Shown here piece by piece: positions 540-52,853 of a DNA stretch of 64,000 nucleotides (its first letter is position 1; each line of letters opens with the position of its first letter). The DNA is from Thermoplasmata archaeon (GTDB lineage Archaea; Thermoplasmatota; Thermoplasmata; Lutacidiplasmatales; SKW197). The stretch covers positions 37,332 to 101,331 of the forward strand of contig JAVZCK010000006.1 in the NCBI GenBank assembly GCA_038874435.1, given 5' to 3'. The notes below the pieces were generated by a model. The model was not told the DNA's origin and ran no database searches. It saw only the letters and a program-made list of their open reading frames with translations. The translations under genes were made by a program, and so were the position numbers.

Positions 540-2675
540 ATGGAGCCAAAGAAAAGAAAAGGCAGAATGGTCGCAGGCGTGGCGGGTGCAGTGGTAACCA
601 TGCTGGTAATCAGCATGTTGTTGATGATTGTAAGTGTAAGGATGGGAAGTGCAGATGATGTAGAAACGGACCTTGCTGTGAATTCCACTTTGAGCGGAAG
701 TTTAAGTGGGGCTGGCAAGAAGGATTATTACAAGATTGTTGTAAACAGCGGGAGCAAGTTGATTGTGAAAATTGATGGACCAAATGGTGGGAGTGTTGAC
801 TTTGACCTTTACATAAAGAAGGACGGGAAGCCAACAACCTCAAGCTACACTGCAAGGGGTTACACGAGCTCTAGTGATGAGCAGGTGAGCGTGAGCGCGC
901 CTTCAGGCACTTACTATGCAATGGTTTATGCCTATAAGGGCTCTGGCAGTTACACAATTACTGCAACTGTGGAAGGCGGCAATGGAGGTGGTGGCGGTGG
1001 AGACAACGGCAACACGAATAATACCGATCCAAACACTCCATCCCAACTCCAGTTTGATATGCCAGTTACAGGCACACTTGATGCGAGCAAAACAAAAGCA
1101 TACTATTACTTTGATGCACCAAGGGCGGCAGCAAAAATCAAGGTTGTGTTAGACGGCCCAAGTGGTGCTGACTACGACCTTTATGTTAAGAAAGACAGCA
1201 CACCAACAACCTCAAGTTACCTTGTCAGAGGCTACACAAATTCTGCAGATGAAACAGTGCTTATCACTAACCAGACAGTAGATGTAGTCGCTGGAAGATA
1301 CTATGTGCTTGTAAACAGATACTCTGGAAGTGGACAATACACATTAACAGCGAGTTTTGAGACAATTGGTGGTGGAAGTTCTGGAAATAACTCCTCAGAG
1401 TCTGATGTGATTGAACTTCGTGCAGGTGTAGCAGTGACAGGGGCGCTAGATGCAAGCCATGCAAAAGAATACTACAAAATTACAGTGAGCTCAGGCACAG
1501 CACTCAAGGTGGTGCTGGATGGTCCAAGCGGTGCTGACTTTGATTTGTATGTGAAAAAGGGTGCGATGCCCACAACCTCAAGCTATGATGTTCGTGGATA
1601 CACAAATTCCGCTGATGAGCAGGTAAGTGTGAGCAATCCTTCTGGAACTTACTACATCATGGTAAACAGGTACTCTGGCTCTGGCAGTTACACAATCACT
1701 GCAAATGTTGACACTGGAAATAATGGTGGTGGCAACAACCCAAATGGTGATGACGACGGGGATGGACTTACAAACGCAAAAGAGACAGAACTTGGCACAA
1801 ATCCAAACAACCCAGATACAGATGGAGATTATATTCCAGATGGAATTGAAGTAAACATGTATGGCACAGACCCAACAAACAAGCAGTATGAAGCTCAATC
1901 CGCAAAAACACCATGGTCTGGATATTGGTGGCCAATGAAGGACAATGGGACCGCAGAGCCGTGTGCAAAGTACGATGCTTATGTGAACAAAACAAGGGGC
2001 TATAATCCACAAGCAGAAAAATGGGAGAAAGAACACCATGGGTGGAGCCCGAATGTGCAGTCATGGTGGGGACACTGCCATGCCTGGAGTGCAGCAGCAG
2101 TGAGTGAGGATGAGCCCACTCATTCGAAGACAGTGCAGGGGATTACATTCACAGTTGGGGACTTGAAGGGTCTGCTTACAGAATCTTACTACTCCTCTTC
2201 CTGTGACCTCTTTGTTGGCACAAGGTACAACGGGCCTTCAAACAATGTCCAGGATGTGCTGCCTAAGGACTTCCATATAACATTGCTGAAATGGATAGGA
2301 ACAAAGAAGAAAGCAGTGGTAATGGACATCACTGCCACTGAAGAGGTCTGGAACTACCCTGCCTACAAATACACAATGACCGTGAGCAATGACACACAGG
2401 ACAGCAGCAAGAAGCACTTTGTTGTAAAAGTGTGGTTTGCAGATGATGGGGTCTGGAAGGACTATGTAGGCACGAAGACGTTCACAATCACCTACAAGTA
2501 CTGGCTTAAATTCAGCACTAACGGAATAACTGATGGGGCATGGGAAGGCGGAAGTGAGAACACAAATGCAGATGCCCAGGCACATCCAGACTTCATCTGG
2601 CATCCAAGTGGTCCGGGAGTGGACTGGGGCTGTCAACTCAGGTATGAAATCGTAAAAGAAATCATCAACGCATAA
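540..2675 (+). CDS. secreted/anchored protein with 3 tandem PPC (pre-peptidase C-terminal, 'DFDLYV') domains, thrombospondin-type-3-like Ca-binding Asp repeats, and a C-terminal putative Cys-protease/transglutaminase-like domain
   Basis: There is an N-terminal basic region plus TM/signal anchor (MVAGVAGAVVTMLVISMLLMIV). Three ~100-aa repeats each contain 'DFDLY(I/V)KK...PTTSSY...GYT.S.DE.V...SGTYY..V..Y.GSGSYT(I/L)TA'. A 'DDDGDGLTNAKETELGTNPNNPDTDGDYIPDG' block follows. The C-terminal domain carries a 'WWGHCHAWSAAAV' motif that resembles the G-x-C-x-x-W/F-A/S catalytic Cys motif of papain/transglutaminase-like folds. Confidence 0.55.
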   Translation: MEPKKRKGRMVAGVAGAVVTMLVISMLLMIVSVRMGSADDVETDLAVNSTLSGSLSGAGKKDYYKIVVNSGSKLIVKIDGPNGGSVDFDLYIKKDGKPTTSSYTARGYTSSSDEQVSVSAPSGTYYAMVYAYKGSGSYTITATVEGGNGGGGGGDNGNTNNTDPNTPSQLQFDMPVTGTLDASKTKAYYYFDAPRAAAKIKVVLDGPSGADYDLYVKKDSTPTTSSYLVRGYTNSADETVLITNQTVDVVAGRYYVLVNRYSGSGQYTLTASFETIGGGSSGNNSSESDVIELRAGVAVTGALDASHAKEYYKITVSSGTALKVVLDGPSGADFDLYVKKGAMPTTSSYDVRGYTNSADEQVSVSNPSGTYYIMVNRYSGSGSYTITANVDTGNNGGGNNPNGDDDGDGLTNAKETELGTNPNNPDTDGDYIPDGIEVNMYGTDPTNKQYEAQSAKTPWSGYWWPMKDNGTAEPCAKYDAYVNKTRGYNPQAEKWEKEHHGWSPNVQSWWGHCHAWSAAAVSEDEPTHSKTVQGITFTVGDLKGLLTESYYSSSCDLFVGTRYNGPSNNVQDVLPKDFHITLLKWIGTKKKAVVMDITATEEVWNYPAYKYTMTVSNDTQDSSKKHFVVKVWFADDGVWKDYVGTKTFTITYKYWLKFSTNGITDGAWEGGSENTNADAQAHPDFIWHPSGPGVDWGCQLRYEIVKEIINA

Positions 2676-5238
2676 ACTTTTTTTCCAATTCTTCTTTTGC
2701 CTCCTGTACTTCTTTTTCTAATCCAATTTTTGCAGCTTCATTGAGGGCTTCCTCAATTGCTGATCTAAATTTTTCTTCATCACCCTTCTCTGCATATGCC
2801 TCCGCAATATCAATTTGGTTATATACCAACATCCATTTGTCCCCTGTTTTCTTGCAGAGACGCTTAACCTCAAGATAGAGCGAAAGTGCCTTTTCAATTT
2901 CACCAATTTCAAAATAAACATTTCCCAGATTGTTCTTTGCAATTGCAATACCTGCAAGGTCATGAACTATTTCTTTCATTTCCACTGTCTTCTCAAGACA
3001 TTTTCTTGCATTCCCGAAATCCTCCAATTCATAGTAAACCATTCCAAGGTTGTTGTAAACTTGGGAAAGCCCTTGTTTGTCGTTGTTTCTAGCAAAAATT
3101 TCCTCAGCCATTCTCAGGTTAGCAATGCTCTCATCGTAGTTTCCCAAGTAGTAGTAAGTGGAGCCAATTCGGGTATAGCAGTTTCCAGCATCTTTTTCCA
3201 TTCCATGTTTTGTGAAAAATTCTAGGGCTTTTTCCTGGCATTCAATCGCATTCTTATAATTACCTGCTCGTTCATGAATGTAACCCTTGATTGTAAGCAG
3301 GCGCGTGATTTCTCCTGCTGCAGTAGAGGATGTACCAGTAATAACTTCAAATGCTTTGTTTATACTTTCCATTGCTTTTTCATGCTCGCCCATCTTAAGA
3401 TAAACCTCTGCCCTAGTTGCATAGGTTCTCCCAAGTTCTGCACCAGGCTCTCCCAGGAGAGAAATCTTCTCGTCCAAAACTTTCATTGCATCCTCGTAGA
3501 GTCCAGACGCAAGATAAATCTCAAGAATCTTATTCAGGGTTTTCAAGGCAATCTCAAAATCTTGGACATCCTTCTTGTTCAACGTTGTAAAAAGCGCCTT
3601 CAAAATCTCTATAGCTTCATCGTATGCGAATCTGCCAACAAGTTTCTCAGCAACCAAAAATCCATGCTCTTTCAACTTATCCAGACGTTTTGCCTTCCTA
3701 TAATGGTAAAGTGCATCAATTATCTTTTCTTCATCACCCTTTTTGTACTCCGCCTCCAGAATTCCACCAAGCATTTCATGAAGAGCAGTTCTGAGTTCAT
3801 CACCCATCTCCTGGTATATCACATCTCTAATTCTAGTAGGGTCAAATCTATATTTGCCTTCCTCGTGCTTTATCAGTCCATGAATCTTCTCGATTCTAGA
3901 CAATGCTCTGAGAAGCTTTATTTTCTCCATGTCAACCATTTTTTCTAGCAATGGAGTGACAAACTCGGTTCCAAGAACACTAGCTGTTTCAAGCACCTCA
4001 AACTCCTCATCACTCAACCTGGTAATTTTCTCCCTTATTATCTCATAGATTCTTTCTGGGATTTTTATTTCTTCTCGATCATACGTCCACAATCCTCCCT
4101 CTTGTCTGAGCAGTTGCTTATCAGTAAGATACTTCAGCAGCTCAATTACAAAGAGTGGGTTTCCCTCTGTTTCAGAGTACACTTTTTCCTTAAAACTTTC
4201 GTCCACATGCCCTCCAAGAACGCACTCTATCAACGCGGCAACACCCTCTCTATCTAGTGGAGCAAGAGTCAAAACTTCGATTAGATTTTCAGACCGCATT
4301 GTATTTATCATCCCAGGTAAGACACTCGTAGTTGGAATTTCATCTGTTCTAATTGCACATAGCACCCCAACCTTTTCTGAAGCAATATCCCTACCAATGT
4401 AGCTGAGAAGAGAAAGAGAAGAACTGTCTGCCCAATGTAAGTCATCAATGAGTATGAGCACTGGCTTTTTCATAGCCATTCTTTTGATTCCACGAAGCAC
4501 ATTTTCAAAAATGCCTGCCTTTTTATCTGCAGTTTCCAGTGCCACCTTAGTGTATTTGTCAGATTCAACAAGTTCTCTGAGCATCACTGTGACTTCATCA
4601 ATATCTGTATCCAATGCATTAGGATTATTGTCTATTTTATCAACTAGTTTTTTCATGTCTTCTAGCAGATATTCGTTTTCAACGCCTTCAACCAATGCAA
4701 CAAGATTCACAACTCTACCAGGTAAGCTCACTATCGTAAACTCACCGTGCCGCATCACTCCAATTTTTTCCTCAATTTCTTTGTGATTTTGGCCAGCAAT
4801 CTGAGTCATCGAATCCTTTATGAAATTTTCAACCGCTGTTACCATTCCAAGAAAAATGTCAGGGTCTATGTTTTTCAAGGTCTTCTCGTGTTTTGAAAGG
4901 ATTATGCCTCCTTTATTTACCAGATAAAGAGCATCTAAGTTTGGGCATGTCTCTGAAAGTAAATGATCTAGATCTGCAGATTTAAGCATGCTGTAAAATG
5001 GTGCTAGTGGCAAGGCAGCACCAGGTAGGCACTTAGTATGAAGAACGCAGAAGTTCTCTTCCTCTGCCTTCTTCTTTACTTCTTCAAGCAATCTAGTTTT
5101 TCCCACTCCTCCCTCTCCCTGAATCAGAAAAATGCTACCGGCTCCATTTGCCGTCTTCCTAATGAGCCGATCTAGATAAGAAATTTCCTTTGTTCTGTCT
5201 ACAAATGCTGGGGGTAGGTTGAGTGCAATCGTCATCAA
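2665..5238 (-). CDS. STAND/AAA_16-type NTPase with C-terminal TPR repeat array; about 100 aa Roadblock/LC7-like insertion between Walker A and Walker B
   Basis: Walker A 'IQGEGGVGKTRLLEEV' and Walker B 'VLILIDDLHWAD' are present. The spacing between them is unusually long and contains 'ALYLVNKGGIILSK...DPDIFLGMVTAVENF...GEFTIVSLPGRVVNLVALVEG'. This aligns by eye to the Roadblock protein at 17075-17434. The C-terminal ~450 aa are TPR-like (repeated A/Y/G/N..Y..A...Y..A patterns, e.g. 'GNYDESIANLRMAEEIF', 'EDFGNARKCLEKTVEM'). The gene overlaps the 3' end of the 540-2675 gene convergently by 11 nt. Confidence 0.7.
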   Translation of the reverse strand: MMTIALNLPPAFVDRTKEISYLDRLIRKTANGAGSIFLIQGEGGVGKTRLLEEVKKKAEEENFCVLHTKCLPGAALPLAPFYSMLKSADLDHLLSETCPNLDALYLVNKGGIILSKHEKTLKNIDPDIFLGMVTAVENFIKDSMTQIAGQNHKEIEEKIGVMRHGEFTIVSLPGRVVNLVALVEGVENEYLLEDMKKLVDKIDNNPNALDTDIDEVTVMLRELVESDKYTKVALETADKKAGIFENVLRGIKRMAMKKPVLILIDDLHWADSSSLSLLSYIGRDIASEKVGVLCAIRTDEIPTTSVLPGMINTMRSENLIEVLTLAPLDREGVAALIECVLGGHVDESFKEKVYSETEGNPLFVIELLKYLTDKQLLRQEGGLWTYDREEIKIPERIYEIIREKITRLSDEEFEVLETASVLGTEFVTPLLEKMVDMEKIKLLRALSRIEKIHGLIKHEEGKYRFDPTRIRDVIYQEMGDELRTALHEMLGGILEAEYKKGDEEKIIDALYHYRKAKRLDKLKEHGFLVAEKLVGRFAYDEAIEILKALFTTLNKKDVQDFEIALKTLNKILEIYLASGLYEDAMKVLDEKISLLGEPGAELGRTYATRAEVYLKMGEHEKAMESINKAFEVITGTSSTAAGEITRLLTIKGYIHERAGNYKNAIECQEKALEFFTKHGMEKDAGNCYTRIGSTYYYLGNYDESIANLRMAEEIFARNNDKQGLSQVYNNLGMVYYELEDFGNARKCLEKTVEMKEIVHDLAGIAIAKNNLGNVYFEIGEIEKALSLYLEVKRLCKKTGDKWMLVYNQIDIAEAYAEKGDEEKFRSAIEEALNEAAKIGLEKEVQEAKEELEKKFMR

Positions 5239-7088: not shown

Positions 7089-7922
7089 TTATTTCTTCTT
7101 TTTCTCTTTCTTTGGTTTTGATGTTTGGGTTATATGATTAGGACAGTTTGTGTTCAACGGGACTTCAAGAACTTCGAACACGTTCCTATACCCATCGTAG
7201 TAAATCAAGTTGTAAGGCAATGCATCATACTCTTTTGAGATTATCTTTATCCCACAGAGGACCTGAAGAGCAGAAATTACCGCGGTAGTTGTGATTTCTG
7301 CAGGCAATTTCGGAGAATAAATCGTCACATCCTCTCTGCCTGAACATGAGAAGATTTGCTCAAGGTTCTTGAAATGGGTTTTGTTCATCCCGCATTCGAT
7401 ACAAGCAGTTTTTGGAGGGAGTACCACCTGGACTTTGCCTGATGTACCTAGGGTACCTCCATCTACAAGTGGAATCCCATAATAATAAGCATGAGAATTA
7501 ATGTATAGCCGTGCCATGATATTGTCTAAGCATCCAAATATAATATCAAACTCCTTGAGAAAATTCTCAGGCAGTTCCTGAATTGGCTTAGAATACCAAG
7601 AAACACGAACTGTTTTATCCAGTTTCTTCAATTCTCTTGCAAGCACTTCTGCCTTCAGCAGCCCTTTCTCAGCATCCTCAATTCTAAAGAGGGCACATCT
7701 GCTTAAATTGGATTTCACAATTTTGTCCATGTCTACTATCGCAATATTCTTGAAACCGGAAAGTACTAGATTTTTTCCTACCTCATTGCCAAGGGCACCC
7801 GCACCAACAACAAGTACCTTACTCTTCTGAATTAAGTTGAATTTTATCCACGGAATCCTCTTCTCTCTATCAAACATGTCTTCGTCGTGCATTCCGACCT
7901 TCAACACTTTATCTGCCGTCAT
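7089..7922 (-). CDS. E1-like ubiquitin/Ubl-activating enzyme (ThiF/MoeB/HesA family adenylyltransferase)
   Basis: Rossmann nucleotide-binding 'KVLVVGAGALGNEVGKNLVLSGF', 'IVDMDKIVKSNLSRC' (E1 Arg-finger/NLxRQ-like), catalytic Asp region 'FGCLDN', and a Zn-binding Cys cluster 'CIECGMNK...SCSG...NCPNH'. The start ATG lies 1 nt after the JAMM gene's TAA stop. Lys-rich C-terminal tail. Confidence 0.8.
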   Translation of the reverse strand: MTADKVLKVGMHDEDMFDREKRIPWIKFNLIQKSKVLVVGAGALGNEVGKNLVLSGFKNIAIVDMDKIVKSNLSRCALFRIEDAEKGLLKAEVLARELKKLDKTVRVSWYSKPIQELPENFLKEFDIIFGCLDNIMARLYINSHAYYYGIPLVDGGTLGTSGKVQVVLPPKTACIECGMNKTHFKNLEQIFSCSGREDVTIYSPKLPAEITTTAVISALQVLCGIKIISKEYDALPYNLIYYDGYRNVFEVLEVPLNTNCPNHITQTSKPKKEKKKK

Positions 7923-7923
7923 C

Positions 7924-10563
7924 TTAACCTCCCTGTGCTTTTTTGAATCCCTTCTTCTCGAGTTTCCTCAAAATTTCTTCTGCCTCTTCTTTTTCTTTAA
8001 GAATTTCTTCTTTTTGCTTTTTCAACTTCTCCATCACCTTTTCTGCATTGGATTTTACCTCAAGGAATTTCTTTACTGCAGGAGCAAGTTCTTTTTCAAC
8101 TCTCTCCACAACTTCCTTCACAATTTCAGTTTTCAGCGCTTCCTGGGGTACCTTCTTCCCAAGCAACTCGGTTATCACAGTTTCAAGCTCAGCCCTCATC
8201 CTTTTAAGCGTCTCTCTCTCATTCTCCAAGTTATTCTTTTCCTCCAGTAATGCCTGGGTCTTCAATTCAATTTCGTGGAGCATGTCTTCAACATTCTTCT
8301 TCTCTTTCTCCACTTCCTCCTTCTTTGTATTAACCATTGCTTCAAGTTCATCCATCTGTTTCTTCCTAGCTGCAAATTCTTTTCCCATTTCATCAATAAC
8401 AGCAAGGTCTTTAGCTATCTCAGCCTCCTTCTTTTTCACTATCTCCTCCCTTTCACTTATCTCCTTTTCTCTCCTCTCAACTTCCATGACTTTTCTTTCT
8501 ACATACTCCTCTTTCTCAGCCAGGACTCTTTCTCTTTCTGTCAGAGTTGCTTCATATCTTGTGATCTTGTCAACACGCTGATTGTATTCCTTTCTCGCCT
8601 CCTCAATCTGCACGCGCTCTAATGTCATAGCTTTCTCTTGCTCAGAAATCACTGCTTCTCTCTCCCTCAGCTCCTTCTCTTTCTCCGCCAATCTCAGATT
8701 TATCGCTTTCAGTTTTTCTTCCTCTCCACGAATAAATTCTTCTTTTTCGTAGAGCACTTTTTCCTTGTCCTCTATTGCTACTTTCCTAGCTTCAAGTTCC
8801 TGCTTGACACGAATAACATCGTTCTCTTCCTTCTTCAATCTTTCTCGGGTCTCACTCAATTCAATTGCTTTCGCATTAGTTTGCTCAATTGCTTTGGAGA
8901 GAGCAATTTTTGTTTGATCTAGCTCCTCACTCTTTGCAGATGTTTCAGCTAACATCTGATTAAGTTGACGTTCTTTCTCCTCTAGTTGTGCAGCAAGAAC
9001 CCTAGCACGGTCCTCTTCTGCCTTCAACCATTCTTCTTTTTCTCGAATTATTTTCTCCTTCTCAGCAAGCATCGTTGCCATCATCGCTTGCTCCGTCGCC
9101 TTTGTATCAACTTCTCTTTTCTCTCTTTCCAGTTCTTCCATCAGCTTAATAAATTTTTCAACCTTCTCCTTCTCTCCAGTTTCTTCTTTGAGCGACTGGA
9201 TCGCATCGAGAATCCATTTTTCTTTTAAATTCAGTTCTTTTTCTTTTATTCTTATTTCCTCCCTTATCTGTCTCAACTCCTTTAAATCCGTTTCTATTTT
9301 TTTCTGCATTTCTGCGGGCATGGTAGCAATGTTCTGGGGGTATTCTTGAGCTTCTTTCAACCTTTCCTCCCACTGCCTCAATTCTTCAAACTTTGCGTTC
9401 AAAGCATTTCGTTCCATCTCCAGCTGATACATTTGAACTGTAAGATTTTCCTCACGCTTTCTGAAATCCTGCGACATTGCTTCAAATGCCTGAATTTTTG
9501 CATTTAGTTCAATCCCAATTTGTTTGATTCTCTCTTCCTCTGTTTTTAACCAGTTTTCCCACTCTGTAAGCTCTGCAATCTTCTTGTTGATATCGGAGTA
9601 ATTCTCTTGAAGTTTGTTCTCTCGCATTTTAAGGTCTTCTTCCCATACATAAAGGTCGCTTTCCTTTGTTTTCAGTGCTTCCTCTTTCTCAGCAAGTTCG
9701 TTTTTCAAATTCTCCAGTTCTCTATACTTCTCACTCAACGTAGCCAAAGAGTCTTCTATGCTGGGCATCTCAAATTCATATTTGCAATTCGGACAGATTT
9801 CTTCTGTAAAGCCAACCTCCGCTTTGCACCTAGGACAAATTTTTGTCTCGTCATCAGTATGTTCTTTTTTCTTAAGCATTTTTTTCTTTTTAACTGGGTA
9901 CTGTATTTTTCCCATCTCTGTCTTCCATTTTCCACAATCATAGGGTTTCTGTAATTCCTCCCAGAATATTGCATAAGGGCGGAGGTAATAATCCATGTCC
10001 TTAACACCAAACACAGCGAACTCCTCATTTATTGGGTCCACAACTATTGCAGAGTGATATTCATGTGGAAACATCTTGGTCTGGGTTGAGATGTCTGTGC
10101 TAGAGAGAAAACATGTATGACCTGGATGTGAATGGTACCAACCAACAAGGATGTAATCAAAAGGAATCTCATCTAGTTGCTCAAACAATTTCTCATATCC
10201 TTCCTTATCGAATTTCACATGAACAGCACTAGCATCCAGATCTGATGTCACAATGTCTCTCACTACTGCATAAACTTTACCATCGTATTTATACACATCC
10301 CCCAAAAGAAAACCCATTACTTCCAGAGTCTGTGATTTGTACTTCATCGCATGGAGAAGAATCTTTTCTTCAGCATTCTTAGAAATATATACATCAAAAA
10401 TTTTTGAGGATTCAATTGTTTTCTTGAACAGCTCAAATCCTTCTTTTGAAGCCCATTCATGGGGTGCTAAATACTCATACTGTGGTGGTTCTTTATTCGA
10501 AATTTCTTTTTTGCTTTCGCCCACAATCTTAGGCTTTTCCCTCGCCATCTTCTGCTCCTCCAA
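7924..10563 (-). CDS. JAMM/MPN+ metalloisopeptidase (Rpn11/AMSH-like deubiquitinase-type) fused to a Zn ribbon and a ~600-aa coiled-coil region
   Basis: The N-terminal ~200 aa carry the conserved Glu ('LEVMGFLLGD') and the complete JAMM motif 'HSHPGHTCFLSSTD' (H-x-H-x7-S-x2-D). A Zn ribbon 'CPRCKAEVGFTEEICPNCKYEF' follows. The remainder is E/K/L-rich heptad-like sequence (ELENLKNELAEKEEALK...), i.e. a long coiled coil. The protein ends '...KKAQGG'. It overlaps the E2 gene 3' end by 35 nt. Confidence 0.85.
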   Translation of the reverse strand: MEEQKMAREKPKIVGESKKEISNKEPPQYEYLAPHEWASKEGFELFKKTIESSKIFDVYISKNAEEKILLHAMKYKSQTLEVMGFLLGDVYKYDGKVYAVVRDIVTSDLDASAVHVKFDKEGYEKLFEQLDEIPFDYILVGWYHSHPGHTCFLSSTDISTQTKMFPHEYHSAIVVDPINEEFAVFGVKDMDYYLRPYAIFWEELQKPYDCGKWKTEMGKIQYPVKKKKMLKKKEHTDDETKICPRCKAEVGFTEEICPNCKYEFEMPSIEDSLATLSEKYRELENLKNELAEKEEALKTKESDLYVWEEDLKMRENKLQENYSDINKKIAELTEWENWLKTEEERIKQIGIELNAKIQAFEAMSQDFRKREENLTVQMYQLEMERNALNAKFEELRQWEERLKEAQEYPQNIATMPAEMQKKIETDLKELRQIREEIRIKEKELNLKEKWILDAIQSLKEETGEKEKVEKFIKLMEELEREKREVDTKATEQAMMATMLAEKEKIIREKEEWLKAEEDRARVLAAQLEEKERQLNQMLAETSAKSEELDQTKIALSKAIEQTNAKAIELSETRERLKKEENDVIRVKQELEARKVAIEDKEKVLYEKEEFIRGEEEKLKAINLRLAEKEKELREREAVISEQEKAMTLERVQIEEARKEYNQRVDKITRYEATLTERERVLAEKEEYVERKVMEVERREKEISEREEIVKKKEAEIAKDLAVIDEMGKEFAARKKQMDELEAMVNTKKEEVEKEKKNVEDMLHEIELKTQALLEEKNNLENERETLKRMRAELETVITELLGKKVPQEALKTEIVKEVVERVEKELAPAVKKFLEVKSNAEKVMEKLKKQKEEILKEKEEAEEILRKLEKKGFKKAQGG

Positions 10564-11071
10564 CTATCTTTGGAGCATGTTCTGTCTTTGTCTTCTCTAC
10601 AATTACTGGAGGTTTGTACGGATGCTTTTCAAAATACTCTGCGGCCTTCTGGCATGCCTCACTACCAAGAGGATTGCCTGGGTTAGGATTTGAAAGAAGT
10701 GTCTCAAGTCCCTTTATGAACATTAAGAGCGTAGACTGTGGGGTCCATGTGTCGAACAGCTTGGTACAGACATAGCCTCCTTCATGTGGGGGCATTATAT
10801 TCGGATGAAATATCGGACTGAGCCATCTTACAATCGGCTTCTGATATGGATACTGAGCCGTAATAATAATTTTCACTTTGTGGGTATATCTAGTAGTCAC
10901 TTTACCTTCCCAGAGAAATGGTCCAGGCGTTTTCACAAATGTGAGGTCTATTTCTATCGGAAAGTTGGATAAGCTACTGTCTGAAACAGAGAGTATGTGC
11001 CTTAGCTCTTTCTTGCACGTAAGGATTTCATTATACAATCTTTGCCTCAATACTTCGATAGGAAGCGGCAC
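10529..11071 (-). CDS. ubiquitin-conjugating enzyme E2 (UBC fold), GTG start
   Basis: 'YPYQKPIVRWLSPIFHPNIMPPHEGGYVCTKLFDTWTPQSTLLMFIKGLETLLSNPNPGNPLGSEACQKAAEYF' matches the UBC core nearly residue-for-pattern: Y-P...P, the HPN motif, the catalytic Cys about 10 residues later, W-(S/T)-P, LL..PNP..PL...A. The start codon is GTG (11069-11071), preceded by a GAGGGGGA Shine-Dalgarno. Confidence 0.85.
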   Translation of the reverse strand: MPLPIEVLRQRLYNEILTCKKELRHILSVSDSSLSNFPIEIDLTFVKTPGPFLWEGKVTTRYTHKVKIIITAQYPYQKPIVRWLSPIFHPNIMPPHEGGYVCTKLFDTWTPQSTLLMFIKGLETLLSNPNPGNPLGSEACQKAAEYFEKHPYKPPVIVEKTKTEHAPKIVGGAEDGEGKA

Positions 11072-11086
11072 ATCTGATTCCCCCTC

Positions 11087-12154
11087 TCAACATCCGCCTT
11101 CTGGGTCAGGTATAAGCTCCATTAAGTCCCCGTCTCTTATATCTGCTTCCTCCACCTTGGTCTCACCACGAAGTATGCGCTTTCCCTTGCGGAGCACATA
11201 CACACCAATGTTCTTTTCCCAGTAGGTTCCCACACTTTCTATGATCTCGTCTATTGTGTTGTCCGGCTCAAGTTCCATGTCCAGCGAAGCACCTGTCTCA
11301 GCATCACGCACTTTCACTCTTATCGACATTTCTTCCACCACCTTTTTCTTTTTTACAGTTTCTTCTTTTTCTGCCTCACTTGAAAGTAATCGGAATTTTT
11401 GCATGATGAGTTCAAAACTCTCTTTTTTTGTCTCTTCAGATTCCACAAGTTCTTCCTCCTCTTCCTCCTCACCTTTGGGTTCACTTATTCCGGCTTTTTT
11501 ATAATCTATAACCTCCAGGTATTGTTTCAATGTCTCAATTTCCTTCTTGCTCAGGACAATCGGTGAAACATGGACAATGAACACACCATTGTTCACTGAA
11601 ACCATGTCAACTACACCTTTCACAAAATCAATCACCTTTTCAAAACCGTTGGCTGTTATGAGAAGTCCGATTGCATCCAGAATGATTGCTGGTTTTGAAT
11701 TGTTTTTAACAAATTCACCGATGATGTAAGTCATCTCAAACTCCAATCGCTGCGGGTCCAAGGTCTTTTCCTTGGTCAATGTTGATGTAAGCCAGTATAT
11801 TTCCTCAATGTTTACATTGTACCTCTTTCTAATCTTTCTAGGATTGCTTTTTGTGAGACATAATCCTGCAAATCCAGCATCTAGTAAGTCCTTGAACAAC
11901 CTATAGGCAAGATTTTCATCCTCTGCGATGTAACTTCCACCCGTCTCCAAAAAGCTTGTGGGTTTCGAGGAAGCAAATCTAGCACCACAGTGAGGACAGA
12001 CTTCATCTAGTTCTCCAACCTCTCCGTTGCATTTGGGGCAGAGAAACACCTCTTCAAATAGTTCCTTTCCGCAAGAGGGACAAATAGTAGAGTCCTTTGG
12101 AATATTTTTACCGCAATAAGGACACTTCGTGGTTTCTGAAGTTTCGGGTGTCAT
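11087..12154 (-). CDS. double zinc-ribbon + DUF835-like domain protein with C-terminal ubiquitin-like beta-grasp domain ending Gly-Gly-Cys
   Basis: N-terminus 'CPYCG..x10..CPSCG..x10..CPKCN..x10..CPHCG' (four CxxC pairs). The middle domain resembles the C-terminal domain of the 20651-21820 protein. The last 80 aa 'MSIRVKVRDAETGASLDMELEPDNTIDEIIESVG...RILRGETKVEEADIRDGDLMELIPDPEGGC' parallel ubiquitin (MQIFVKT...VEPSDTIENVKAKI...LRLRGG) and terminate in GG followed by a single Cys. Confidence 0.75.
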   Translation of the reverse strand: MTPETSETTKCPYCGKNIPKDSTICPSCGKELFEEVFLCPKCNGEVGELDEVCPHCGARFASSKPTSFLETGGSYIAEDENLAYRLFKDLLDAGFAGLCLTKSNPRKIRKRYNVNIEEIYWLTSTLTKEKTLDPQRLEFEMTYIIGEFVKNNSKPAIILDAIGLLITANGFEKVIDFVKGVVDMVSVNNGVFIVHVSPIVLSKKEIETLKQYLEVIDYKKAGISEPKGEEEEEEELVESEETKKESFELIMQKFRLLSSEAEKEETVKKKKVVEEMSIRVKVRDAETGASLDMELEPDNTIDEIIESVGTYWEKNIGVYVLRKGKRILRGETKVEEADIRDGDLMELIPDPEGGC

Positions 12155-12188: not shown

Positions 12189-12200
12189 TCAAATATATAA
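12189..12200 (-). promoter_or_regulatory. TATA-box-like element (minus strand ttatatattt) about 35-45 nt upstream of the ubiquitin-operon first gene
   Basis: The plus strand reads 'aaatatataa' in the 70-nt gap between the PHP gene stop (12225) and the Ubl-gene ATG (12154). Confidence 0.3.
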
Positions 12201-12224: not shown

Positions 12225-13511
12225 TCAAATAAAGCTGTCAAGAGTTGGCTGAGAATTTCTCCCTTTTTTCACTTCCACTCTTTTCGTTGTTCTGACTTCC
12301 TCTAGATTTTCCTGAGTACTGACCTCCACATCTGGAATTACGATTTCTCCATATTGCCCACCACCACCGGGTTTAACAATAACCTTCCCTGCTCTGAACG
12401 CCTCAATTGCCCTAACAACCTCCAGCGGTGCTACTCTGTTTATCTCCTCCATTTCTGCATCAATCAATATTCTCACTTCATTACCAAACTTGCTGATTAA
12501 TCCTTCCCAGATTTCTATAACCTTTTTGCTGTTTGGAGAACTCCCCAATGCCTTGGCAATTATTTCCGTAAGTGGGATTATGTGAATATATTTCGGTCTA
12601 TGTGAAGGCGACCTAGGTTCTGGATAAGTCGCAAGTTCCTCAACTCTATCTCGAACACCCTTCTTTATTCTTCCTCCACATCTGCACTTCCATCCTTTTC
12701 TCTTTGCCTCATTTAGCGTGTAATGGGTATAGCATTTTATGCAGGCACTTTCATTGTATTTTCCTTCCTCTGGTGGTACTCCAACATTCAGCACAACGCA
12801 CCTGCCTTTCTTGCGAAGAAGGGCCATACCCACCTCCTCAAAAGTCGGTTCTTCTACCTCCATACGCATGAATTCTCTGGCTAGGCGAAGGGGCCAAGGA
12901 GAATGGGCATCGGAATTTGTGAGGAATGTCATGTTTTGAAGTTCTGCAATTCTGTCAGCGTAAGAGGTGTCTGCACTTAACCCTAGCTCAATGTAGCCAA
13001 CATAGTCCACGAGGTCTCCGTAACACTCTTTCAGCGAATCAAATGCAGCATACACCGAAGTCCATGGCGTAAAAGCATGGCAGGGACCAATGAGCACATT
13101 GCATGTTTTTGCGATTTCTGCAATCTCAGCACCGTTGCCATGAAATCTTGGCCTCCCATCGGTCATAAGGTCTGAGACCTTTGAGATTATCTTTTCCGAG
13201 AATTCCTCTACCTTTGAAATTGAAGGGAAGATTAGCAGGTGATGAACCCTGTCACTGTCCTCTACCTCACAAGTTAAAATTACTCTCAAATTCCCAATCT
13301 CAAAAGTGCCTTCATCCACTTTTTTTAGTGCCTTTATTTCTTCAAGCCACCTAGGGTGGAGACAATCCCCTGAGCCAATCAAATTTATTCCTTTCTGGCT
13401 TGCCCCCTTCGCCAGATTCCGCATATTCATCACATCACTTGTACCTCCGGAATAGCGGCTGTGAATGTGTAAGTCAGCATTAATTTCCATTTTTAACAAC
13501 CTCTTTTCCAA
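12225..13511 (-). CDS. PHP-domain protein with C-terminal Cys4 zinc finger (Endonuclease Q / TIGR00375-like)
   Basis: PHP signature 'ADLHIHSRYSGG', with further His/Asp ligands (TNSDAHSP). C-terminal 'CIKCYTHYTLNEAKRKGWKCRCGG' Zn finger, then 'PGGGGQYGEIV'. The architecture matches archaeal EndoQ-type PHP proteins. Confidence 0.55.
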   Translation of the reverse strand: MEKRLLKMEINADLHIHSRYSGGTSDVMNMRNLAKGASQKGINLIGSGDCLHPRWLEEIKALKKVDEGTFEIGNLRVILTCEVEDSDRVHHLLIFPSISKVEEFSEKIISKVSDLMTDGRPRFHGNGAEIAEIAKTCNVLIGPCHAFTPWTSVYAAFDSLKECYGDLVDYVGYIELGLSADTSYADRIAELQNMTFLTNSDAHSPWPLRLAREFMRMEVEEPTFEEVGMALLRKKGRCVVLNVGVPPEEGKYNESACIKCYTHYTLNEAKRKGWKCRCGGRIKKGVRDRVEELATYPEPRSPSHRPKYIHIIPLTEIIAKALGSSPNSKKVIEIWEGLISKFGNEVRILIDAEMEEINRVAPLEVVRAIEAFRAGKVIVKPGGGGQYGEIVIPDVEVSTQENLEEVRTTKRVEVKKGRNSQPTLDSFI

Positions 13512-47924: not shown

Positions 47925-50900
47925 TCAGATTTTTCTTTTTCTGAGGGTTACCACTGCAAACACTGTTACCAACATTGGTATCAGAATATATCCTATAGAG
48001 AATTCGCTGACTGGCTGGATTGTTACTGGGAAACTTCCGTTTTCTGGAAGTGTTGCAGTGTTGTTTCCGCTATCCCATGCCTGGATATAGTAATAGAGGG
48101 GGCCTGGTGAACTCTGAGCTGGAATCTGTCCGTGCCATGTACCATTGGTGTTGTTGCCTGCAATCAAAGACATAGCAATCGCTATTGTGGTATCACTTCC
48201 AACTGGTTGGTAGAACACTTTTACATCCGTTATGGGTTCCGCACCAGCTGTTACATTGGCATAAATGTCGATTGGATCTCCTACATTCGCAGCGGTTACT
48301 GGTGTGTGGCTGATGAGAATTGTACCTGCGGGAACTATATTTATATACACCACCTTTGCGTCATTTCCAGTAGCTATATCTGCGCCGAGTTCTGTATTTA
48401 CCATGATTTTGTATCTTCCTGTTTCGGTGAAGTTGTATATCCAATCTAGGTTTACCTCCGCATTTTGAGGCATTGTTATCCCTGTGGGCTTCGTCTGATT
48501 GAATATCTCTGTCAGTACTGTGTTTTTCTTCCCTATTACCTGCACATCGTCAAGATACCAACCCAGGTAATTGACCATGCTATCTGCACCGAAATTAAAT
48601 CTCACTTTAACATTCGAATTGCCAACCCATCTTGTAAGGTTTACTGTCACTTCAACCCATGTTTGGACTCTTCCTGAAAATGCTTTCTTTCCACCGAGTG
48701 GATTGCCCCATGAGGAGGAAATTGTTCCGTTGTAATAGGGTTGAGGATTAACATTTGGCTCGTCTACCTGCATCCATGTGCTTCCATCAGTTGTTATTTC
48801 TATTAACCAACCATCATACACCGTGTAAGTTCCAGTTTCCATGTCCACCCACTGCCAGTACTTCATAACAACATAGTCGTAACCCGAGAGGTCCATTGCT
48901 GGTGAGATCAGCGCTGCTGAATATGCATTTGCGTAATTGCCAGCTAGATTTGTGCCCCAGACATTTGAGCCACTGTGTGGTGTTGGTGCACCTGTGCCTG
49001 ATGGCGTCCCTCTTGCCCATTGGTCCACTGCATTGCCACCTGTATTCTGGTGTGTCCAGCCCTTGTCTATCTCAAAGTCATCCACAAAGACTGTGTCCTC
49101 CGTGCCTGGTAGAACTTCCCAGATTCTGCATCTCACATCAAAAGAATCCTGGGTGTTTGGTCCATAGTTTTTGATTTTCGCACTCACTGTTCGTTCGCCA
49201 GTATAGTAGGCGTTCTCATTTATCGGAGAGATAATACTCTCAACGCCTACATCATCAAGGGTTTTGAATACCCTGACTGTAGCAGTGCCATCAAGTCCTG
49301 TGTCGTCTATTGCCACAACTCTGATTCTGTAGGTTCCAACAGGATAGGATGTGAGGTCAAGTGTGTAGCTGTTTCCAGTGGTGCTTCCAATGTAACTCCA
49401 GGATTGCCCATCGTCAGGGCTGAGGTAAATGTCAAACTTCACGATTGTCCTCGTATCGCTGGCACTCCATGTTACATTAACAATATCATAAAAGCCAGTA
49501 TTTTCCTCTGGAGCGGTGATAGTCACCGTGGGCTTTGAGCCACCAAGCAGGTAGGAAAGCGAGCGATCCATGAGAGTTGCCCTTATACTCCTTGAGGAGA
49601 TGTCCTCAAACGCAAAGGCATAGTAAACCACTCCATGACTCCCTAGATATCTAACACCAGCAGTGTTTCCACTGGAGTACATTAGGAAGGCATAGGCACC
49701 TGTGCGGGCAGAAACTCTATCTGGATAATAACCCCCAATTACATCCTGCAAACTTGCACTGATTCCATCGCCTATTGGGTCACCAGCAACACCATTGATT
49801 GCATAACTCCCATCATTGTCCGCTGAATAGGTGGCATGAAGGTAGGTCTGGTACCATGTAGCATTGTTGTACTGGGTTCCATCGGTAGCACAGAGGTCCC
49901 ATCCGATATCCTGCCCTGAAATTACAAGTTTTCCTCCTCCATCAAGATAACTCCCGAGCAAACTGCGGTCATCTGCAGAGAGCTGTGGATAGCAATCACT
50001 TGTGTGCCATACCACTGCCTTAAATTGCTGAAGGTATGCCAAGGTGGGCATGCCCTGTTTTGCCTTGCTCCAGATTCCATAGCTCCAACCCGCGTCTCCA
50101 ACTGCGTCAGTATAGTACTTGTCAAATATGAGATAGGACCCACCATCTATTATAAGAATGCTAGCTAAGGTTGTTGTGAACTTATAATGCAGACCGCCAT
50201 TCGTGTCTATACCCACGTTACCTACAATGTCCCTACCTTCCAGATCAAAAACATAGGTTGTGTTGAGTTCCAGACCGTATAACCTTATTCTATGAACGAA
50301 CGAAAGAACACTCGAATAAACTGTAAGTGTCGGAGAGTATACTCCATACTTAACTTTAGAAGTTGTTGGTTCGTTAGTTGTCCATGTAATCTCAGCGTAG
50401 TTTCCCGCGATGACCTCAACAGATACATTTGTTATTACAGGGGGTCTTCCATCCACATTTGCGTATGCGAAAACAGGAGAATGTGGTGCGGATTGATCGA
50501 TATATTTTGCAACAATCCTATCTCCATCTGAAATTTGTAAAACCCCATTAGAATTCGTATGAGAAATAGAAATGCTCCCTTCAAAAATATGGCAACCCGA
50601 AGAGAGTTCCGTAAGAATTACTGTTTCACCATTTGGTTCTGTAGTGGAATTTACCACACCAGTAAGAAGCCCAGAAGCATCTAGATCTATAACTCGTAGT
50701 TTTATCATCCCCTCGAGAGAATACCAATATTTGTCCATATGTATTTCTCCCTGTGTGTCACTTAACCCTCCAGTGACTACTAGTGCAAAATCTTGAGGAC
50801 CAAAAGGAACATTTACTGCAGATATCCTTACCCTATAAAGCCCTACTTCTGGCGTGTTCAAATAGACACACTCTTCTACGTTAGTGTTATCAGATATCCC

Positions 50901-52853
50901 TCCCGGAATTGATTGCCCATTTGCAAACACATTTCCTAAATATTGGGTCCCATTGGGTGCAACCACGATAAGGTCTAAGTCGTTTACAATCGCTCTAGAA
51001 GAGAGTGGCTCGCCAGGATAATCCGTCCATGCTAGAGTTATTTTCAACGGAACTGAAGAATTGGAAACATAGTATAGATATTCCACACAATCTCCAGTCA
51101 AAAGTCCGTCTCTGAAATCGACTACTCGCAACCTCTCAGTATCTCCATTGAAATACAATACTCTGTCTAGATTTATTATTCCCCATCCTATGTCGTTGTT
51201 AGGCACGGAGAACGCGGCAAATGGGACACCACTATTTATCAATGCGGCCTTTATCAGAGCCGCAGAAGGAGTAAAACCATTGCTGCTCACCTTCGTGCCG
51301 GTTGGATACCAACCTTCGGTAAAGTACTGCCTCACAAGTGCAGCACCACCTGCAGCTGTAGGAGTTGCCATCGAAGTGCCACTCATTGTAATGTATCCTG
51401 AGTTGTTTGAATGCAAATTCCCATCTGAGTCTGCAGACACAATATATCTACCTGGTGCGCATATCGTGGGTTTAAGGCGTCCATCTGCAGTTGGCCCCCT
51501 GCTCGAAAAGTCCGCAATCTCCGTCCCGTAATGAGAAGTCGCTCCTACGGTAACAATGTTCTTTGCAGTACCTGGGCTTCCGACTGTGTTTGGACCTGAG
51601 CCACTATTACCAGCTGCAAAAAAGATAAGCATGTCCTTGTGATACCACATAAACTCATCTGTCTGCATGGATTCGCTTGTATAGTTGTTACTTGAAGAAC
51701 CCCAGGAGTTTGAGTGCAATCTGGCCCCATCATTGTATGCCCAAAGGAAAAGAGTATTAAGGTCTGGAGGTAATACGAGTACATCATTATATCCAGAGAC
51801 ATTACCGATGTCCGCAAATGAGAGCTTTGCACTCGGAGCTATACCTATTCCATTTAGATTAGTTCCACCCACATAGCTATTATTTCCAGCTACCGTACAT
51901 GCTACATGCGTTCCATGACCAGAATAATCGCTGTCACTCTCATTTGCGTTCACATGATAGTTGACTATTTTCCTATGCTGGAGGTCTGGAGGTAGAGAAC
52001 CCGGAGGATTAGAGTACTGGACTGGGAAGTGACTTGGATCCCTAAATGCTTCGTGGTCCCAATCAATACCAGTATCACTTACTCCAATTATCTGGTCATC
52101 ACCATAAAGCCCATGATTCCAGATTGGCGTGTTTCCGCTTGTGCCTGACTGAATCACGCCTGCTGAAATTGAGTTAGATATTTTCATCTCGCTCCGCTTT
52201 TCTATCCATCGCACATCTGGCAAAAATGCAATTTTCTCAGCAAGTTTTGAGTTCATCTCCGCTATTATGGTTCCACCATCTCCGTACATTGATGGTGCTA
52301 CATCTTTCACAATGCCTCCATTCTTTCTGATTGCCATAGCCACTCCATAAATGTTATCGAATACCAGAATTTTGAGCGTTTGAGAAGGTGTATCGTATAC
52401 ACTATTGTCTATCTTATAATATGGTTGATAAATTCCCCACCACTGCACAAACGGAAGATTTGCAATTTCCTGCATCTGGGAAAAAGTTGCTTTTACAGTA
52501 TAGGCATTGTCGGGTATGTATGAAAGAATCTGACAGTGTTTAGAAAGCTGGACTTTCCAGTTTTCTTTTATTGGACCCTTCATTTGGACTATGTAAACTC
52601 CACTAACCCATCCAGGATAGGAAGATATCCTCAGATGGGAAGGGATCTCTGGTTCTCCTGCAGAGGTGGAAAATATAATCTTCTTCAGAAAAATCTGGTC
52701 GCTCGCATATCCACTCTGAACTTTATCATTTGCCTTCACCTCTTGGCCTGGCGTCAGTGGAACTATAAGAGATGCCATCACAATCGCAATCACCACAAAT
52801 AGGATTTTCATCTTGTTGCCCCCAGTTTTCATAATTCTACCATAGTGCTTCAT
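47925..52853 (-). CDS. giant secreted subtilisin-like serine protease (S8) with multiple accessory domains and C-terminal TM anchor
   Basis: Catalytic triad blocks 'IIGVSDTGIDWDHEAF' (Asp), 'YSGHGTHVACTVAG' (His), 'MSGTSMATPTAAGGAAL' (Ser). Signal anchor near the N-terminus (MKILFVVIAIVMASLIV). 1642 aa. C-terminal 'SEFSIGYILIPMLVTVFAVVTLRKRKI'. Confidence 0.9.
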   Translation of the reverse strand: MKHYGRIMKTGGNKMKILFVVIAIVMASLIVPLTPGQEVKANDKVQSGYASDQIFLKKIIFSTSAGEPEIPSHLRISSYPGWVSGVYIVQMKGPIKENWKVQLSKHCQILSYIPDNAYTVKATFSQMQEIANLPFVQWWGIYQPYYKIDNSVYDTPSQTLKILVFDNIYGVAMAIRKNGGIVKDVAPSMYGDGGTIIAEMNSKLAEKIAFLPDVRWIEKRSEMKISNSISAGVIQSGTSGNTPIWNHGLYGDDQIIGVSDTGIDWDHEAFRDPSHFPVQYSNPPGSLPPDLQHRKIVNYHVNANESDSDYSGHGTHVACTVAGNNSYVGGTNLNGIGIAPSAKLSFADIGNVSGYNDVLVLPPDLNTLFLWAYNDGARLHSNSWGSSSNNYTSESMQTDEFMWYHKDMLIFFAAGNSGSGPNTVGSPGTAKNIVTVGATSHYGTEIADFSSRGPTADGRLKPTICAPGRYIVSADSDGNLHSNNSGYITMSGTSMATPTAAGGAALVRQYFTEGWYPTGTKVSSNGFTPSAALIKAALINSGVPFAAFSVPNNDIGWGIINLDRVLYFNGDTERLRVVDFRDGLLTGDCVEYLYYVSNSSVPLKITLAWTDYPGEPLSSRAIVNDLDLIVVAPNGTQYLGNVFANGQSIPGGISDNTNVEECVYLNTPEVGLYRVRISAVNVPFGPQDFALVVTGGLSDTQGEIHMDKYWYSLEGMIKLRVIDLDASGLLTGVVNSTTEPNGETVILTELSSGCHIFEGSISISHTNSNGVLQISDGDRIVAKYIDQSAPHSPVFAYANVDGRPPVITNVSVEVIAGNYAEITWTTNEPTTSKVKYGVYSPTLTVYSSVLSFVHRIRLYGLELNTTYVFDLEGRDIVGNVGIDTNGGLHYKFTTTLASILIIDGGSYLIFDKYYTDAVGDAGWSYGIWSKAKQGMPTLAYLQQFKAVVWHTSDCYPQLSADDRSLLGSYLDGGGKLVISGQDIGWDLCATDGTQYNNATWYQTYLHATYSADNDGSYAINGVAGDPIGDGISASLQDVIGGYYPDRVSARTGAYAFLMYSSGNTAGVRYLGSHGVVYYAFAFEDISSRSIRATLMDRSLSYLLGGSKPTVTITAPEENTGFYDIVNVTWSASDTRTIVKFDIYLSPDDGQSWSYIGSTTGNSYTLDLTSYPVGTYRIRVVAIDDTGLDGTATVRVFKTLDDVGVESIISPINENAYYTGERTVSAKIKNYGPNTQDSFDVRCRIWEVLPGTEDTVFVDDFEIDKGWTHQNTGGNAVDQWARGTPSGTGAPTPHSGSNVWGTNLAGNYANAYSAALISPAMDLSGYDYVVMKYWQWVDMETGTYTVYDGWLIEITTDGSTWMQVDEPNVNPQPYYNGTISSSWGNPLGGKKAFSGRVQTWVEVTVNLTRWVGNSNVKVRFNFGADSMVNYLGWYLDDVQVIGKKNTVLTEIFNQTKPTGITMPQNAEVNLDWIYNFTETGRYKIMVNTELGADIATGNDAKVVYINIVPAGTILISHTPVTAANVGDPIDIYANVTAGAEPITDVKVFYQPVGSDTTIAIAMSLIAGNNTNGTWHGQIPAQSSPGPLYYYIQAWDSGNNTATLPENGSFPVTIQPVSEFSIGYILIPMLVTVFAVVTLRKRKI

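Follow-up and report, generated by a model that had tools for sequence, protein, structure and literature searches.

Does a ubiquitin-like (Ubl) domain that forms the tail of a longer protein still reach the cell as a free modifier? The question is raised by one gene in a 64,000-nt stretch of contig JAVZCK010000006.1 from a Thermoplasmata archaeon (the window, by which we mean the whole stretch that was analysed). In this gene, a Ubl closes an open reading frame (ORF) of 355 codons, and genes for ubiquitylation enzymes follow on the same strand. The original prediction, made from the letters of the window, described the Ubl as the C-terminal domain of a 355-aa protein that also contains a double zinc ribbon and a DUF835-like domain, and the ORF and Pfam agree with this description. 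It was further proposed that the one locus could yield both the fusion and a free ubiquitin, a proposal that the conservation of a Shine-Dalgarno (SD) sequence and of an internal ATG appears to support. On balance, we favour dual products from internal initiation, in which the fusion would be made together with a free Ubl of ~9 kDa.

The putative internal start site of the fusion gene

According to the ORF list, the gene is a single uninterrupted ORF on the minus strand (12154..11087), with 355 codons and an ATG start. The elements on which the argument turns are the following.

11087..12154, minus strand: coding sequence of the fusion protein, stop included (355 aa, 40.0 kDa), in the order double zinc ribbon, DUF835/inactivated KaiC (iKaiC), linker, Ubl, GG-Cys
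11093..11329, minus strand: ubiquitin-like beta-grasp domain, Met276-Gly354, ending ELIPDPEGG (AlphaFold2 fold, family alignment)
11327..11329, minus strand: internal in-frame ATG, Met276, the ancestral Ubl start codon (aligned with the start Met of the free genes and kept in the five window-clade orthologs)
11331..11347, minus strand: internal ribosome-binding region AAAAAGGTGGTGGAAGA, with the SD core GGTGGTGG at 11342-11335 and a 5-nt spacer to the ATG

Most relatives of this Ubl are encoded by genes of their own. A search with the 80-aa Ubl alone returned 60 clusters of free-standing proteins of 77-88 aa (57-65% identity), and when a single genome of each species was scanned, 200 species, nearly all of them Thermoplasmata or Methanomassiliicoccales, had a relative. 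Of the best loci in these ~200 species, 78 could be scored, and 73 of them carried a free Ubl gene. Aligned with the window protein, the free Ubls begin with a Met that falls exactly on Met276. DUF835 was never found near a free Ubl across the compared loci. These sequences show that the free Ubl, by far the commonest form, is the ancestral state. The original prediction had named two outcomes that would count against it: a Ubl fused in every relative without conservation of an internal Met or ribosome-binding site, or a C-terminal region that is not conserved as a unit. Neither was the case: most of the scored loci have the free gene, the fused clade keeps the SD and ATG, and the Ubl shows 57-71% identity across the family with an invariant C-terminus, ELIPDPxGG.

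The sequence directly before the internal ATG is aaaaaGGTGGTGGaagaa. The SD that had been placed 5 nt from the ATG at 11329-11327 was confirmed in the sequence. Its duplex with the anti-SD, for which the canonical archaeal 16S 3′ end was assumed, has an energy of -10.3 kcal/mol. This ranks 5th among the 418 in-frame internal ATGs in 38 window genes (top 1.2%) and equals the value for the E2 gene's own ribosome-binding site. Genes inside operons clearly use SD sequences in this organism. The RNA around the internal site is also predicted to be accessible, with a mean unpaired probability of 0.69 compared with a median of 0.49 for 74 internal ATGs of neighbouring genes (top 3%).

Only a small clade, divided into two branches, has the fusion. 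The window branch has five species-level variants with 76-87% DNA identity (the window, L012, L013, L014 and L010/L094-096). The divergent branch, with 42-45% protein identity to the window, comprises L002/L015, L097/098 and L017. When the five window-clade orthologs were aligned by codon, AAAAAGGTGGTGGAAGA (11347-11331) proved to be the longest run that is invariant in 5/5 sequences. It measures 17 nt, the next longest runs measure 11 and 9 nt, and it sits in a linker that is otherwise divergent and rich in indels. Read in codons, all five orthologs share AAG GTG GTG GAA GAx ATG, and the invariant run covers three synonymous third positions. For comparison, 25% of the conserved degenerate codons are identical in all five. 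Of 19 Val codons, two are identical throughout, and these are precisely the SD valines; GTG accounts for 38% of the Val codons in the window. Judged from this pattern of conservation, the internal ribosome-binding site is under selection.

The divergent branch has its own version of the arrangement. L002 and L097 contain GAGGTGG-8nt-ATG, and L017 contains GAGGAGGT-10nt-ATG, in each case 9-12 codons before the Ubl domain. These distal sites fall at aligned positions of linkers that otherwise have no likeness to that of the window, and each ranks first or second among the 75-123 internal ATGs of its own locus (top 1-2%). Between L002 and L097, synonymous changes fall on the region of the proximal Met and spare the distal SD and ATG. 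In free-standing Ubl genes, the start is preceded at a distance of 4-8 nt by GGTGGT, GGAGG or GGTGA, motifs that read in frame as Gly-Gly or Val-Val. By this comparison, the Lys-Val-Val-Glu-Glu-Met of the window protein appears to be the former leader of the Ubl gene, now translated. An 87-aa protein, P0069, starts exactly at the internal ATG of L017 and was considered as an unfused intermediate. We rejected it as a truncation artefact because it comes from contig fragments of 541 and 618 bp that are identical to L017.

The longer frame is maintained as well. The segment between DUF835 and the Ubl is as follows.

11330..11500, minus strand: acidic/basic disordered linker, residues 219-275 (~57 residues), AlphaFold2 predicted local distance difference test (pLDDT) <50, with a short conserved helix KESFELIMQKFRLL

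Linker sequence and length vary among orthologs (55-82 codons in eight orthologs), and every indel is a multiple of three. Frame 0 is free of stops in 8/8 orthologs, and each other frame contains 1-17 stops. Because frame 0 stays open over a divergent linker while the other frames hold stops, the fused open frame is, by this sequence comparison, itself under selection. A conserved GG in the linker, at which the JAMM might free the N-terminus of the Ubl, was sought across the orthologs and none was found. As a separate observation, the motif KESFE-x-IMQKFR-x-L (residues 246-259, window 11379-11420) is kept in the window clade and coincides with the helix that AlphaFold2 places inside the linker (residues 247-258). 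No such motif was seen in the linkers of L002 or L017.

Operon partners, domains and the tail after Gly-Gly

Genes for E2, JAMM and E1 lie directly downstream of the fusion on the same strand.

11080..11086, minus strand: SD (GAGGGGG) of the E2 gene, directly 3′ of the fusion stop, invariant in the five orthologs (-10.3 kcal/mol)
10529..11071, minus strand: E2 ubiquitin-conjugating enzyme, 180 aa, GTG start, HPN...Cys motif FHPNIMPPHEGGYVC (Pfam UQ_con 1.2e-13)
7924..10563, minus strand: Rpn11-like JAMM/MPN+ metalloprotease HSHPGHTCFLSSTD, 879 aa, with a zinc ribbon and a ~600-aa coiled coil (Pfam JAB 6.2e-14)
7924-7935, minus strand: 3′ end of the JAMM gene, carrying the E1 SD GGAGGT (read from the sequence)
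7089..7922, minus strand: E1-like adenylating enzyme, 277 aa, ThiF fold, GxGxxG (Pfam ThiF 2.9e-51)

All three enzymes resemble their eukaryotic counterparts. The best PDB matches of the E2 are eukaryotic UBE2A/Rad6 and UBE2N (2e-12). The JAMM, whose likely true start is the ATG at 10548, has an intact motif of the ExnHxHx7Sx2D type and matches Rpn11 (1.2e-13), the Rpn11-like chains 6fjv/6fju (5e-13) and CSN5 (2e-11). For the E1, the active adenylation domain of UBA1 (1.3e-30) and UBA3 (3e-27) are much better matches than ThiF/MoeB (about 1e-12). Across UBA1, UBA3 and SAE2, the matches of the adenylation domain range from 1e-30 to 1e-23, and no extra Pfam domain was found outside the ThiF core. 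The gene in question encodes the modifier of a ubiquitylation operon that is of eukaryotic type and apparently lacks an E3, in the order zinc-ribbon-iKaiC-Ubl fusion, E2, Rpn11-like JAMM, E1.

The remaining domains of the fusion protein are the following.

11981..12136, minus strand: double zinc ribbon, residues 7-58, four CxxC pairs (Pfam Zn_ribbon_3 1.4e-10, Zn_Ribbon_1 2.9e-8, DZR 2.6e-7)
11522..11923, minus strand: DUF835 (inactivated KaiC/RecA-like), residues 78-211 (Pfam PF05763, 2e-26, above the curated cut-off)

Pfam reads the four CxxC pairs as two sequential zinc ribbons, and their spacing argues against a cross-brace; the cysteines are invariant (8/8) in the ortholog alignment. DUF835 has been classified as an inactivated KaiC output domain of archaeal signalling proteins (PMC5847659). 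A search of residues 60-216 for the Walker A pattern GxxxxGK[ST] found none, so the P-loop appears to have been lost. In the Ubl, Pfam gave weak beta-grasp matches on residues 278-347 (YukD 1.3e-4, ubiquitin 0.04). An AlphaFold2 model with input from six orthologs gave a confident beta-grasp at residues 278-349 (pLDDT 82-87) and a confident DUF835 domain (pLDDT 80-90). We hold the identities of these parts, both the fusion domains and the operon enzymes, with very high confidence.

The free-standing operons of Thermoplasmata and Methanomassiliicoccales contain the same set of genes, with an orthologous Ubl (57-65%, ELIPDPEGG end), E2, JAMM and E1. The order Ubl-E2-JAMM is found in nearly all loci, the order is usually E1-Ubl-E2-JAMM where all four genes were detected, and linkage of the Ubl to E1/E2 is kept in ~80 loci. 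The operon often adjoins ribosomal-protein and tRNA-synthetase genes. These operons differ from that of the window in having a separate Ubl gene of 77-88 aa that usually ends exactly at GG, an E1 upstream of the Ubl, a JAMM of ~219 aa without a coiled coil, and no DUF835 nearby. In the fused clade, the E1 stands at the end of the operon instead, and the JAMM (634-882 aa) is enlarged by a zinc ribbon and a coiled coil. The coincidence of the DUF835 fusion, the move of the E1 and the growth of the JAMM suggests a co-adapted remodelling of the cassette.

Two further observations concern these enzymes. Many Thermoplasmata loci (window 10519-10573; also L003, L019, L022, L023, L026, L029, L031 and L036, among others) share a short basic-hydrophobic motif, [KR]-[PI]-[KR]-[IV]-[IVL]-G, which the E2 carries in its C-terminal tail and the JAMM at its N-terminus. 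The E2 tail reads APKIVGG in the window and RRIRIIGDADG, KPRILG or PPKVLG elsewhere, and the JAMM reads EKPKIVGES in the window and ARPKILGET or KPRIVGEV elsewhere. This shared motif may be a docking peptide for a common partner. The JAMM also ends in GG (...KKGFKKAQGG; TQGG, ASGGSS and AGGND in orthologs), which was considered as a second modifier-like tail and rejected. It is probably a by-product of an SD, because its two codons, GGAGGT, double as the SD of the E1 gene that follows (start 7922), and L002/L017 lack it.

The Ubl itself does not end at its di-glycine. The chain closes with ...IPDPEGGC followed by TGA (stop 11089-11087), and the extra residue is encoded as follows.

11090..11092, minus strand: single Cys codon (TGT, 11092-11090) after the di-glycine, a one-residue pro-peptide (read from the sequence)

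In the four closest relatives, the codon after GG is ATT, ATT, ATC or ATG (Ile, Ile, Ile and Met), and in L014 a mutated stop lengthens the tail through the E2 SD to IREGE. Of the 78 related loci, 38 stop at GG, and the other 40 have a tail of 1-15 residues, which begins with Cys in six. The GG is invariant in every sequence of the Ubl family alignment. Because orthologs carry Ile, Met or longer tails there, the Cys after GG is by all indications a lineage-specific and disposable residue. The original prediction was right that the chain ends in PEGGC, but the GG-Cys is not a conserved feature; the Cys is specific to the window genome. Its comparison with the QbsE/CysO theme also gives way to a better precedent for trimming by a JAMM, the pro-ubiquitin of Caldiarchaeum. 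The tail of that precursor, CGEPIRRAA, leaves it refractory to E1 until an Rpn11 homologue cuts the tail off (PMC5654768).

Proposed products and competing explanations

The fusion would have originated in the ancestor of the small clade, when a double-zinc-ribbon/DUF835 gene was joined in frame to a downstream Ubl gene. The former 5′ leader of the Ubl would have become the end of the linker, with its SD (now Lys-Val-Val-Glu) and ATG retained. Ribosomes starting at 12154 would make the 40-kDa fusion, and ribosomes that bind the internal SD (11342-11335) would begin at 11329 and make a pro-Ubl of 80 aa and 9.0 kDa. The calculated masses are 40.0 kDa for the fusion, 8.98 kDa for the pro-Ubl and 8.88 kDa once the Cys is lost. 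Both products would end in Gly-Gly-Cys and, by analogy with Caldiarchaeum, the JAMM of the operon would trim the residue or residues past Gly-Gly. The UBA1-like E1 would then adenylate the exposed glycine, the modifier would pass to the E2 cysteine and on to target lysines, and the JAMM would also reverse the modification. The role of general modifier probably falls to the free Ubl, just as in the ~200 related species with a separate gene. The fusion is a selected second form, which may link the Ubl to an iKaiC signalling module or be activated via its own C-terminus.

Several points weigh against this proposal. N-terminally extended or tagged ubiquitin is competent for conjugation in eukaryotes, and a free Ubl is therefore not strictly needed. 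The anti-SD was taken as the canonical archaeal 16S 3′ end, and an Rfam scan of the whole window found no RNA family, hence no 16S rRNA gene from which the actual anti-SD could be read. Because the five window-clade orthologs are related, their invariant sites count as only partly independent observations. In L017, the residue aligned with Met276 is Ile, and in L002 and L017 the best SD and ATG lie 9-12 codons upstream, which would give the free product a short N-terminal extension. An SD inside an ORF could also serve as a translational pause site. Finally, a RING-finger pattern was searched in all six frames of the 64-kb window and no E3 was found, although divergent E3s are possible.

Among the alternatives, the one that survives best is that the 355-aa protein is the sole product and the Ubl works solely as the C-terminal domain of an iKaiC protein; we consider this rather unlikely. 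GGTGGTGG and the ATG would then be leftovers, a pause, or the signature of a Lys-Val-Val-Glu-Glu peptide signal. The clearly maintained reading frame of the linker fits with this, as does the Ile of L017. A protein from another metagenome also shows that the Ubl family can exist as an internal, non-conjugatable domain beside DUF835. This protein, P0090 (L129:6001-11055, 1684 aa), has a FYVE-like zinc finger, TPRs, a long coiled coil, a Ubl and a C-terminal DUF835, with Pro/Glu-rich spacers, and its Ubl lacks the GG (ELIPDPKPE). No E1, E2 or JAMM gene was found near it, and the 78-aa ORF beside it does not encode a Ubl. By its sequence, P0090 shows that this Ubl family was joined to DUF835 on another, independent occasion. 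However, a mere leftover would have decayed, and the linkers of the main fused lineages cannot be aligned except for the SD and ATG. The SD is the longest invariant nucleotide run in the window clade and includes three synonymous third positions, which selection on a peptide signal would not fix. Its strength and the accessibility of the RNA also lie in the top 1-3% of internal ATGs.

It is also conceivable that the fusion, trimmed of its Cys, is itself activated at 40 kDa and that the whole zinc-ribbon-iKaiC moiety is attached to targets or to itself, with the free Ubl as a by-product. The intact ELIPDPEGG C-terminus of the fusion, the adjoining E1, E2 and JAMM genes and the selection on the frame are all consistent with such a role. 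The model predicts a long disordered linker, which would leave the Ubl sterically free, and tagged ubiquitin does conjugate in eukaryotes. The gain of a zinc ribbon and coiled coil by the JAMM and the move of the E1 in the same clade suggest co-adaptation. However, this explanation does not account for the internal ribosome-binding site being the best-conserved DNA stretch of the gene; neither a target nor an E3 is known, and the free form is ancestral and by far the commonest. We consider a modifier role of this kind distinctly unlikely. The same low probability applies to a two-output device, in which the internal start would give the free modifier while the Cys-trimmed full-length protein would be charged by E1 and E2 and ligated via its ubiquitin tail to targets or to the coiled-coil JAMM as a scaffold. 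If this were true, it would be a prokaryotic use of the ubiquitin system for "domain ligation", with the ratio of products set by translation initiation.

A role as a sulfur carrier of the QbsE/CysO/ThiS/MoaD type, in which the JAMM would trim GG-Cys and the Ubl would carry a thiocarboxylate for cofactor or cysteine synthesis, is very improbable. The QbsE/QbsD, CysO/Mec and haloarchaeal SAMP/UbaA/JAMM1 systems combine a beta-grasp protein with a C-terminal GG, a ThiF-type activating enzyme and a JAMM that takes off residues or adducts past GG. The GG-Cys end and adjacent JAMM of the window do recall QbsE/QbsD and CysO/Mec, and the E1 is a short protein of the ThiF fold. However, sulfur-carrier systems have no E2, and their ThiS/MoaD-type carriers are tied to sulfur chemistry, whereas the window operon holds a UBC-fold E2 with HPN...Cys, an E1 that matches UBA1 far better than ThiF/MoeB, and a JAMM that matches Rpn11 and CSN5. 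In addition, the Ubl has no ThiS or MoaD match in Pfam, its Cys is not conserved, and the operon contains no sulfurtransferase, CysM or cofactor genes. As for a sequencing or assembly error that erased a stop between two genes, which nothing beyond the origin of the window from an uncultured organism would favour, we discount it almost entirely, because the same architecture recurs in independent NCBI, ENA, JGI and Logan assemblies at 42% to 97% identity (P0001-P0005, L008-L015, L017 and L094-L098). The closest protein (97%) is annotated from a Thermoplasmata metagenome-assembled genome.

Known systems and other architectures

The best-known relative of the operon is that of Caldiarchaeum subterraneum (Aigarchaeota), which encodes Ub, an E1-like and an E2-like protein, a small RING finger protein and Rpn11 (Nunoura 2011, PMC3082918; Hennell James 2017, PMC5654768; Fuchs 2018, PMC6043591). 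Both are archaeal operons with a ubiquitin-fold modifier, a eukaryote-like E1, an E2 and an Rpn11-type JAMM. In both, the modifier precursor has residues past Gly-Gly, and the Caldiarchaeum tail also opens with Cys. Unlike in Caldiarchaeum, a pattern search found no RING E3 gene in the window operon or the 64-kb window. The window E1 has just 277 aa and no Pfam domain besides the ThiF core, the JAMM lies inside the operon with its zinc ribbon and ~600-aa coiled coil, and the modifier is the C-terminal domain of a zinc-ribbon-iKaiC protein with an internal ribosome-binding site. The host also belongs to Thermoplasmata, not to the TACK or Asgard archaea.

Encoding ubiquitin within a larger polypeptide is familiar from eukaryotes. 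Eukaryotic ubiquitin is made as polyubiquitin, often with one extra residue past the last GG, or as the fusions Ub-eL40 and Ub-eS31, and these precursors are processed at Gly-Gly by deubiquitinases. The same logic is followed by Ubl-E2 fusions among the relatives (P0006 at L001:259-1008, P0114 and P0137), in which GG is followed at once by E2. At this junction there is no start codon; P0006 reads GGANLPEDL where the E2 Met would be. When the partner is C-terminal, as in these Ubl-E2 fusions, a GG-specific protease can split the fusion. In eukaryotes too, ubiquitin is N-terminal to its partner and is freed by a cut after GG. In the window protein, however, the partner is N-terminal to the Ubl, such a protease cannot separate the two, and the start signals have been retained. 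A second translation start is the apparent solution to an N-terminal partner that a GG-specific protease cannot free. Two other architectures were seen in the family: proteins of ~185 aa that join a Ubl without GG to FHA (P0079, P0089, P0099 and P0145), and a tandem double Ubl with a membrane anchor (P0083).

In prokaryotes, in-frame internal initiation is known to yield two proteins from one gene, as in E. coli CheA-L/CheA-S, the IF2 isoforms and ClpB. The window gene resembles these in having an in-frame start with its own SD within a longer ORF. Unlike them, its short form would be the complete product of a formerly independent gene, and its start would be the retained ancestral one.

Among bacterial systems, the gene order Ubl, E2, JAMM, E1 is that of Bil (BilABCD), and the enzyme folds are also those of CBASS Cap2/Cap3. 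However, PADLOC models gave no match for the Ubl fusion or the E2, generic similarity only for E1 and JAB, and no defence-system assignment, and the operon of the relatives lies in a conserved housekeeping neighbourhood. The system works in the manner of the Caldiarchaeum/Asgard ubiquitin cassette, from which it departs in the RING E3, and it is neither of the sulfur-carrier nor of the antiphage type. A Thermoplasmatota E2 clade is mentioned in one preprint (bioRxiv 10.1101/2023.07.25.550441). Beyond that mention, our literature search found no account of the Thermoplasmata cassette and nothing on a DUF835-Ubl fusion.

Eukaryote-like ubiquitin systems of archaea have so far been studied mainly in Caldiarchaeum and Asgard. 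The present comparison adds an orthologous, apparently E3-less E1-Ubl-E2-Rpn11 cassette in ~200 species of Thermoplasmata and Methanomassiliicoccales. As the latter include cultivable methanogens, a tractable experimental model may be within reach. The fused clade offers a natural experiment in how a ubiquitin gene deals with a partner at its N-terminus that a GG-specific protease cannot remove, and the evidence suggests that it does so by keeping its own ribosome-binding site inside the new ORF. It would also be a clear case, in archaea, of selection on synonymous sites for internal initiation. The recurrent pairing of Ubl and inactivated KaiC hints at a tie between ubiquitin-like modification and KaiC-type signalling hubs.

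In three closely related free-standing operons, a gene for a 374-aa protein without a Pfam match lies 3′ of the JAMM gene on the same strand (L003:9489-10613; also L004 and L005). It is a candidate for an extra component, possibly an E3 or a substrate. Upstream of the fusion gene in the window, one minor element was noted.

12193..12200, minus strand: candidate archaeal TATA box TTATATAT, ~40 nt upstream of the fusion ATG (read from the sequence)

The next gene upstream (12225..13511, PHP/MJ0043_C-type) was considered as a member of the system and rejected because not all orthologs have it beside the fusion (L010-L012 do, L008 and L014 do not). Three other large genes of the window have no evident tie to the Ubl operon: a STAND-like AAA_16/TPR ATPase with a weak RPN7-like match (2665-5238, minus strand), a 1642-aa subtilase surface protein (47925-52853, minus strand) and a 2169-aa protein with an STT3-like N-terminus and CarboxypepD_reg repeats (52946-59455, plus strand). 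The second of these was compared with P0090 and proved to be unrelated, being a surface protein of the subtilase type.

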